Origin: Mustelus asterias
Lineage: Eukaryota
NCBI RefSeq assembly: GCF_964213995.1
Contig: NC_135815.1
Span: 16,306,001 to 16,370,000, forward strand
Direction of reading: 5' to 3'
DNA length: 64,000 bases
Part shown: positions 52,121 to 54,651 of the stretch, one piece after another
Layout of the letters: each line of letters starts with the position of its first letter
Position numbering within the stretch: the first letter of the stretch is position 1
Position numbers and translations under genes: made by a program
The notes under the pieces: model-generated
The model's database searches: none
What the model was told of the DNA's origin: nothing
What the model saw: the letters and a program-made list of their open reading frames with translations, nothing else

Positions 52121-52795
52121 AAGTATATCTGCGGCCTTCGCCCCATATTCCTACACACCATTTGATGAATAAAAAACAAATCAATCTGAAACTAAAAATT
52201 ATTAATTGACCCAGAATGAAATGCCATTTGTGGAAAGGTTCCAAACTTCTCCTGCCCTTTGTTTTGGAGTTTTCCCAATTCTATTCCTGCGGGGCCTTGC
52301 TCGGAAATTTAGGCCTGAGTCTAATTTTTATCTTGCGTCACCCAGTCCTTGATTTTTTTTTATTCATTCGTGGGACATGGGTGCCGCTGGCTGGCCAGCA
52401 TTTATTGCCCATCCCTAGTAGAGAGTCAACCACATTGCTGTGGCTCTGGTGTCACATGTAGGCCAGACCAGGTAAGGTTGGCAGATTTCCTTCCCCTGAA
52501 GACATGAGTGAACCAGATGGGTTTTTCCGACAATCGACAATTGTTTCATGGTCATCATTGGCTTCTTAATTCCAGATTTTTTTTACTGAATTCGAATTCC
52601 AATGGCGGGATTCGAATCCAGAACATTAGCTGAGTTTCTGGATCAATAATCTAGCGATAATACCACTAAGCCATCCCCTTCCCTAGAAGACCCCACCAGC
52701 AAAAACACTATCAATTCCCTTTACTATTATGAAAACATTGGTTAAGTCATCCCTTATCCCATATCCATGGTTTATTTGTAAATTGAGCCCCTTAC

Positions 52796-53038
52796 CTTCT
52801 GGTATTAACACATCAGGCTGTGGAGTTTGGGTGGAAGAGAAGGCCTCGAAGGGCTGTTGCTCTAGTGGTATCTTTGCTGGAGTAGGTATAGGATCAGAGT
52901 GTTTAATCTCGGGGTGAGTCATTGTGGAGTCAGGGAGCTTATGGAATTTAACATCAGACCCAGGCTTGACAGTCACCTTCTTGAATGTCTGAGTAACATG
53001 GTAGCCCATTCCACCAGGGCAGATTTGCTTGAAGGCAG
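52796..53038 (-). CDS. LTBP1: LTBP1-like exon: C-terminal part of 8-Cys (TB) domain and start of hinge
   Basis: 243 nt, acceptor aaaacag, donor G|gtaagg, phase 1/1. Reads AAFKQICPGGMGYHVTQTFKK...PTPAKIPLEQQPFEAFSS...PE, matching recalled human LTBP1 AAFKEICPGGMGY...PLPAKEEPVEAL. LTBP family is secure; the paralogue assignment is less so. Confidence 0.88.
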
Positions 53039-54651
53039 CTGTTTTGGACAACACAAAACAGGATTTAGTTTCGATTAAACTTTTCCATTTTACAAATTTA
53101 GACATCTTCAACGCTGAATGATCATTCTTTTCTTAAAAAAAAAACAAATGGTTCTTTAAAACCTCAAATTTCATGGGTAAACATTCAAAAGCTTCAGAAA
53201 ATGAAGATGTGATTTTTTTTTAAAACTGTAGCAAAGCAAAAAGTGGCACAAAAGGAACAGTCCAAAAAAACTCCACGCATTGTTTCAATGACTTGGTTTC
53301 AGTTAATCAAGCCTGGTTGGATATTGGCCAAATAGTTTCAATAGACAGGCTGACAGTCTAGTGGCACAGTGGGTATTTGCCCCTGCCTCGGCACCAGATG
53401 CTCTGGTTTCGAGTCCCATCCAAGGACATGATGGCCAAGGAAGTTGCAGAGGCACTACGGGGCAGCTGCCATAGGGAGCGATGGGGAAGGTCACTGTCTA
53501 AAACCTTTCAACCACAGTGAACCGAGGGGAGCAGAACCTCCTCGGACTGAATGACTTGCTGGATGCATACAGTGAATGCAACATGTATCTCAGTAGTACT
53601 GAAGCATCTCGGAGTTCAACTTGCTCAATATAAATAACTTTGCAACATTTGTAAGACCATTATAAAATGTCTGAAATGTTTCATTCACTGTACCGAATTA
53701 TCTGAGTGTTACTTGATGGATGCAAAGAACCTGAATTTTATTATAGCTTTTTGTGTGATGGCTGTTTTGGAATGTTTATAATTTTCTTGCAGGTTTTTTA
53801 TGGATAAAGTATATTTTTTGGTGTGTATATAACCTGACAGGGGTGAAACCATCACCAGGCAGCTGGGTCACCCAGGCTAGGATAGAGTCAATGGTCAGGG
53901 TAGCCGATGAGATTTAACGGAGGCCTCGCCTGAATCCATTTTTCAAAACCATCTGGGCCTGTTGGCGAAGGTGAAGCGTCAGATCAAGCCTGGGAAGGGG
54001 CTGCAAGGCCTCATGCTGTCAGCTTGGATTTTGCTCCTTCCTCCTGTGTGACACGGTGGCACAGTGGTTAGCATTGCAGCCTCACAGCACCAGGGACCCG
54101 GGTTCGATTCCCAGCTCGGGCCACTTTCTGTGCGGAGTTTGCACATTCTCCCCGTGTCTGCGTGGGTTTCCTCCAGTTTCCTCCGAAAGACGTGCTGCTT
54201 AGGTGCATTGGCCGTGCTAAATTCTCCCTCAGTGTACCCAAACAAGCACTTAGTGGGGCGACTGGGAGATTTTCACAGTAACTTCATTGCAGTGTTAATG
54301 TAAGCCTACTTGTAACACTAATAAATTAACTAAAACTTTAAACTGTGGGAACCATGCATTGGATTCAATTTGAATTTGTTTTATTTGGATGGAATATATT
54401 TTCTTTCAAGTAAGCTGTATCCGTAACCGGGCCAAACAGGTTGAGATTCAGCCTGTCAGTCTTTCCAGTGTGTACCAATGGCAGATTGGCTGGTCAGCCA
54501 TGTGATGGAATGGGGAAGTTGCAGTCTCCACCATCACAATCAGTAGCTCCAGATTATAATGTGTTCTTGTTGCCACAGCAACGGTCACTTACTGAGTGAA
54601 CCTTAAGAGGTCTCATAACACCAGGTTAAAGTCTAACAGGTTTATTTGGAA

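Follow-up and report, generated by a model that had tools for sequence, protein, structure and literature searches.

An in-frame internal acceptor in the TB1/hinge exon of shark LTBP1, probably latent, compared with the human delta53 splice site

A shortened splice form of human LTBP-1, delta53, was reportedly first described in FEBS Letters in 1998. How old this form is among vertebrates is the question raised by a CAG inside one exon of the LTBP1 gene of the shark Mustelus asterias, found in the 64,000-nt stretch of DNA analysed here (henceforth the window). According to the accessible text of PMC2782160, human delta53 removes 159 nt (products of 469 vs 310 bp), and this form, which can predominate among the transcripts, made up 11 of 12 clones from glomerular endothelial cells; the legend to Fig. 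1 of that paper names a putative heparin-binding motif, HRRRPIHHHVGK. In the accessible parts of two further papers, residues 402-449 of LTBP-1S are described as required for activation of latent TGF-beta by integrin alphaVbeta6 (PMC2172370), and the BMP1 cleavage site of LTBP-1 is placed at L485-D486 (PMC2064503). With the numbering anchored on that site, our own count puts residues 403-449 of the human RefSeq protein P0272, from the eighth Cys through the Pro before the A-K junction, inside the part that delta53 removes. Given that human delta53 deletes the hinge used for integrin-driven TGF-beta activation, the age of the isoform tells whether this is an old vertebrate control or a later one.

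The exon concerned, its borders and its two landmarks are:

52796..53038, minus strand: LTBP1 coding exon, 243 nt, phase 1-1, encoding the end of TB1 (the first 8-Cys domain) and the N-terminal hinge
53039..53040, minus strand: canonical acceptor AG, weak (leave-one-out score 0.96), used by 3/3 exon-spanning contigs
52794..52795, minus strand: donor GT, from splice contigs and sequence
53019..53021, minus strand: codon for the eighth TB1 Cys
52962..52985, minus strand: basic motif FKKVTVKP, opposite human RRRPIHHH in the alignment

The exon is joined in as a single unit from 53038 to 52796; three spliced contigs, each with precisely these limits, confirm both ends. The exon also matches exactly the RefSeq LTBP1 model P0026, which agrees letter for letter with 28 exons from the window and its flanking DNA. 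The assignment to LTBP1, made in the first-pass annotation from the sequence alone, was borne out by a protein search with the exon peptide, in which 15/15 matches, from sharks and rays, carry that name. As expected of an LTBP1 orthologue, the best matches are to LTBP1 (the names being the databases' own) and a TB domain is followed by the hinge and an array of cbEGF domains; in the PDB, at the cut-off used, LTBP1 is represented by a C-terminal piece only. The upstream TB exon (165 nt, L002 1787-1623) lies 12.6 kb from the 243-nt exon, beyond the right end of the window. It stops at position 37 of the 44 of the Pfam TB domain (covering 2-37) and holds seven Cys, which places the eighth in the 243-nt exon.

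Within this exon the candidate site and its surroundings are:

52877..52878, minus strand: candidate internal acceptor AG, formed by Pro CCA and Ala GCA; no use seen
52877..53038, minus strand: stretch removable via this AG, 162 nt, 54 codons
52879..52898, minus strand: pyrimidine-rich coding stretch S-D-P-I-P-T-P before the AG, 14/19 pyrimidines
52897-52893, minus strand: branch-point-like CTGAT within that stretch

Recomputation from the sequence agrees with what had been calculated before: the CAG at 52879-52877 is in frame, and its use would remove 162 nt (54 codons) and leave 81 nt starting (A)KIPLE. The eighth Cys does lie in the removed part, as had also been claimed. The exon thus holds what defines a delta53-type arrangement, an intra-exonic in-frame AG that, if used as acceptor, would cut out Cys 8 of TB1 together with the basic hinge. 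Shark candidate and human delta53 share the gene and the exon, and in each an in-frame acceptor at a Pro-Ala pair would take out (162 vs 159 nt) the eighth Cys along with the basic stretch of the N-terminal hinge; the human form has been cloned, whereas its shark counterpart was seen in no transcript or model examined. The alignment confirms that FKKVTVKP stands where human LTBP1 has RRRPIHHH, with two adjacent basic residues in the shark and three in human. Consensus heparin-binding motifs read XBBBXXBX or XBBXBX; taken as a sequence pattern, human HRRRPIHH fits, whereas shark FKKVTVKP fits neither strictly. The K-K-V and K-P of the shark motif are kept in 21-22 of 22 chondrichthyans. Compared with residues 402-449 of the human LTBP-1S hinge, as delimited in the accessible text of PMC2172370, only the first 14 residues of the shark segment are closely alike.

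An in-frame AG by itself is at chance level here: the exon has three internal ones, removing 162, 177 and 240 nt, and about 4.5 per 80 codons are expected from LTBP1's own codon pairs. The context of this AG is less ordinary. Acceptors were scored with a crude matrix built from the gene's 28 true acceptors, each of these being scored by leave-one-out. The internal AG, with a score of 3.4, ranks 1/46 among the in-frame exonic AGs of the gene and 2/149 among all its exonic AGs; it outscores 8/28 true acceptors as well as the exon's own (0.96, the second lowest of the 28), and so falls in the range of true acceptors on this crude scale. When the exon was recoded synonymously at random, 0.20-0.25% of trials matched this score under three codon models, about 1% did so conditional on an AG being present, and in 0.5-1.8% of trials it was attained by at least one of the recoded exon's in-frame AGs. 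Its conditional p is the lowest among 57 comparable sites, which is the chance expectation if the site was chosen post hoc. By this crude model, then, the internal AG is more acceptor-like than chance and codon choice favours the acceptor (p about 0.002), the strongest point in favour of the predicted isoform. The longest pyrimidine run ahead of it measures 4 nt. Two related species differ from the window at 4 and 2 positions per 243 nt, few changes in all, none of them within 52876-52900.

Is the site used? We took a census of 405 LTBP1 proteins, reading by eye each one without the 5' part of the exon; one contributing protein search was queried with the whole exon, and gene models, which make up the census, miss minor isoforms. 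The internal junction occurs in 27/132 amniote proteins (monotreme, marsupial, placental, bird, turtle and lizard), where it reads GT-AKEE. Among the matches listed it occurs in 0/104 chondrichthyan proteins from 22 named species, of which 96 are full, four are whole-exon skips, three are fragments and one is an odd model. Nor was it found in the 169 proteins of non-amniote bony vertebrates (26 chondrostean, 15 holostean, 58 teleost, 5 lungfish, 7 salamander, 18 caecilian and 40 frog), not even among salamanders, caecilians, lungfish and sturgeons, in which the P-A pair is present (0/56). Counted over the cluster members listed, amniotes have 14 short and 53 full forms, chondrichthyans 0 and 79; the Fisher value of 8e-6 is overstated because isoform rows are not independent. 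A search for short proteins gave 16 matches; among the 13 read there was no shark junction fragment and one gecko fragment with the amniote junction.

The position of the human boundary given in the first-pass annotation holds: P0272 has 53 codons ahead of P/AK, the amniote short isoforms join at GT-AKEE, and the accessible text of PMC2782160 gives the 159 nt that this implies. The portions of PMC5039643, PMC8760520 and PMC4019825 available give no delta53 boundary, and a 2026 preprint is silent on both splicing and the hinge.

RNA evidence came from assembled contigs of 4 of 24 listed runs. Spliced contigs from runs X21, X1 and X24 span the exon at flat depth (35.6, 28.7 and 297, respectively) with no break at 52876. 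The deepest, that of X24, ends exactly at 53038, which would fit a branch between two upstream donors. A 242-nt contig from X22 (52659-52900) was rejected as junction evidence; it contains intron. Contigs lose rare variants, so this result excludes only a major isoform, and the same holds for the whole comparison: no delta53-type transcript or annotated isoform was found in sharks, by means sensitive to major isoforms only. In the papers found, shark LTBP1 splicing is undescribed, the coverage being that of openly available articles, outside subscription journals and supplements.

We therefore read the locus, with a probability of about 0.63, as an ordinary TB1/hinge exon of shark LTBP1 in which the internal CAG is a latent acceptor without appreciable use. 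Pro-Ala codons in a phase-1, Pro-rich exon would readily yield a CAG behind a pyrimidine-rich run. The first-pass annotation had predicted a shark delta-54 isoform, which 0/104 chondrichthyan proteins listed and three contigs unbroken at 52876 do not support. It had further taken the splice to be ancestral to jawed vertebrates; the counts of 0/273 non-amniote against 27/132 amniote proteins speak against this, and on present evidence an abundant delta53-type form dates to amniotes. The short form is likely a feature of reptiles, birds and mammals, not one common to all jawed vertebrates. It may have arisen, or become abundant, in the amniote stem, where the codons of P-P-P-L-P-A would supply a long C-rich tract.

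Low-level use of the internal acceptor in sharks, whether ancestral or convergent, is doubtful. The ancestral version supposes a real acceptor, homologous to that of human delta-53 and inherited from the gnathostome ancestor, that is minor or tissue-restricted in sharks and was lost in neopterygians and frogs. The acceptor context agrees with it: no other in-frame exonic AG of the gene scores higher, the synonymous bias has p about 0.002, the branch-like CTGAT lies 18-21 nt upstream, and the exon's own acceptor is a weak competitor. The occurrence of P-A in 22/22 chondrichthyans and also in sturgeon, lungfish, salamander, caecilian and amniote proteins is in line with it as well. We nevertheless consider the ancestral version unlikely. 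It demands low use in each sampled non-amniote lineage, to accommodate an internal junction absent from 273 non-amniote proteins and three unbroken contigs, and the register of the P-A pair on which the homology depends is ambiguous. If junction use in sharks were true, this would be a conserved alternative 3' splice site, relevant to the TGF-beta and matrix fields only.

The register was examined around one further feature:

52863..52868, minus strand: Pro-Leu codons CCA CTA, the match of the amniote P/A in the gap-free alignment

Measured from the conserved PxEA anchor, the P-A pair stands at -9 in sharks and chimaera, -8 in batoids and -5 in bony vertebrates, i.e. nine residues away in the shark and five in human. 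MAFFT, run on 45 species, and hhalign, with all bony vertebrates as target, both give a gap-free alignment with the amniote P/A on the shark P-L, where there is no AG at the junction; the next AG, one codon on (52863-52862), scores -7.3. When the hhalign target is restricted to amniotes, PAK falls on PAK with a 4-residue gap, a profile alignment that favours the ancestral acceptor. Of 440 pairwise alignments at standard gap costs, 233 show the four-codon shift and 174 put P-A on P-A; the shifted register is ahead at all five gap settings, by a narrow margin at the lowest. The shark P-A may thus be four codons out of register with that of amniotes, as judged from these alignments. Position 52864, within the Pro-Leu pair, is itself variable: the window reads P-L-E there, 19/22 chondrichthyans read P-P-E, and in run X24 a variant at 52864 creates a second in-frame CAG (52864-52862).

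Such a shift is what a convergent origin would predict, in which sharks use at low level a separate Pro-Ala pair, four codons upstream and independently recruited within a Pro-rich repeat. Besides the quality of the acceptor and the offsets (-9 for the shark P-A vs -5 for the bony P-A/T), the gap-free register, even with gap costs left out, outscores the forced one in comparisons with sturgeon, paddlefish, gar, lungfish, newt and salmon. Use is nonetheless as absent from the contigs and the 104 chondrichthyan proteins listed as it is for an inherited site, and we regard this origin as quite improbable.

Conservation of the pair itself is real and of limited meaning. It had been claimed that P-A-K is kept within a variable hinge. 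The P-A part stands, P-T-P-A being invariant in 22/22 chondrichthyans; the K does not, occurring in 11/22 species, and with 32/78 positions invariant among chondrichthyans the P-A is no lone conserved island. Elsewhere, no AG is possible at the matching place in gar, bowfin and teleosts, which have P-T there, nor in frogs, which lack the Pro; in neopterygians the Pro-rich motif persists though P-T precludes the AG. The near-identity in length, 53 codons in human and 54 in the shark, had been offered as support and was rejected as evidence: the distance from exon start to P-A ranges over 40-56 codons across the taxa counted.

Other alternative events are recorded in this part of the gene. The 55-residue TB exon upstream, which supplies Cys 1-7 of TB1, is missing from 18/83 chondrichthyan cluster members listed, and from 4/21 chondrostean, 2/12 holostean, 7/41 teleost and 2/16 caecilian members, all scored by motif absence, the teleost cases not being read singly; the same skip occurs in 0/70 amniote, 0/27 frog, 0/4 salamander and 0/4 lungfish members. 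As far as these sequences go, its distribution is the mirror image of that of delta-53. The RefSeq skip of the TB1 exon (shark, ray, chimaera and fish) resembles delta53 in that TB1 is disrupted and its Cys count becomes odd; it differs in removing Cys 1-7 and keeping the basic hinge, delta53 losing the opposite half. With either the TB-exon skip or the internal acceptor, the 7+1 split makes the Cys count of TB1 odd, and a free thiol would be expected. The name 'delta55' was rejected for the fish 55-residue skip; the human 'delta55' form is N-terminal.

The whole 81-residue exon is skipped in P0020, P0066, P0069 and P0070, from catshark and two skates, which the weak acceptor of the 243-nt exon fits. 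The same skip is also annotated in turtles and turkey. These isoforms, with the weak acceptor, lend some colour to the idea that what preserves the T/C-rich stretch is a role as splicing silencer or decoy aiding whole-exon skipping, and not one as acceptor; a longest pyrimidine run of just 4 nt fits this poorly, and we hold it to be very improbable. The reading of the CAG as a latent site gains from the fact that shark models do record other events here (18/83 TB-exon skips and four whole-exon skips). In sharks, variation in this region would then come from skipping of the 55-residue TB exon upstream and, as the rarer event, from loss of the entire 81-residue exon. Skipping of the upstream TB exon in fishes vs use of the internal acceptor in amniotes makes a complementary pattern and a testable lead. 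A version in which the delta-53 acceptor is as old as the gnathostomes, with low use in sharks, fishes mainly skipping the first seven Cys of TB1 and amniotes having raised the internal acceptor so as to lose the eighth Cys and the integrin-activation hinge, would amount to lineages exchanging one route to an odd-cysteine LTBP1 for another; it has perhaps one chance in a handful of being right.

Further along the gene, at 33432-31002 (minus strand), the shark hinge lacks a counterpart of the S-L-D stretch that holds the human BMP1 site L485-D486, and reads E-L-E-K-E-K there. LTBP1 also has a coding micro-exon of 23 nt (33432-33410, minus strand; VATSMPEK); the next exon, 91 nt long, lies at 31092-31002, and the phase becomes 0 between the two. 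About 110 nt downstream of the donor of the 243-nt exon lies a SINE-like high-copy repeat (52618-52685), matched by thousands of contigs.
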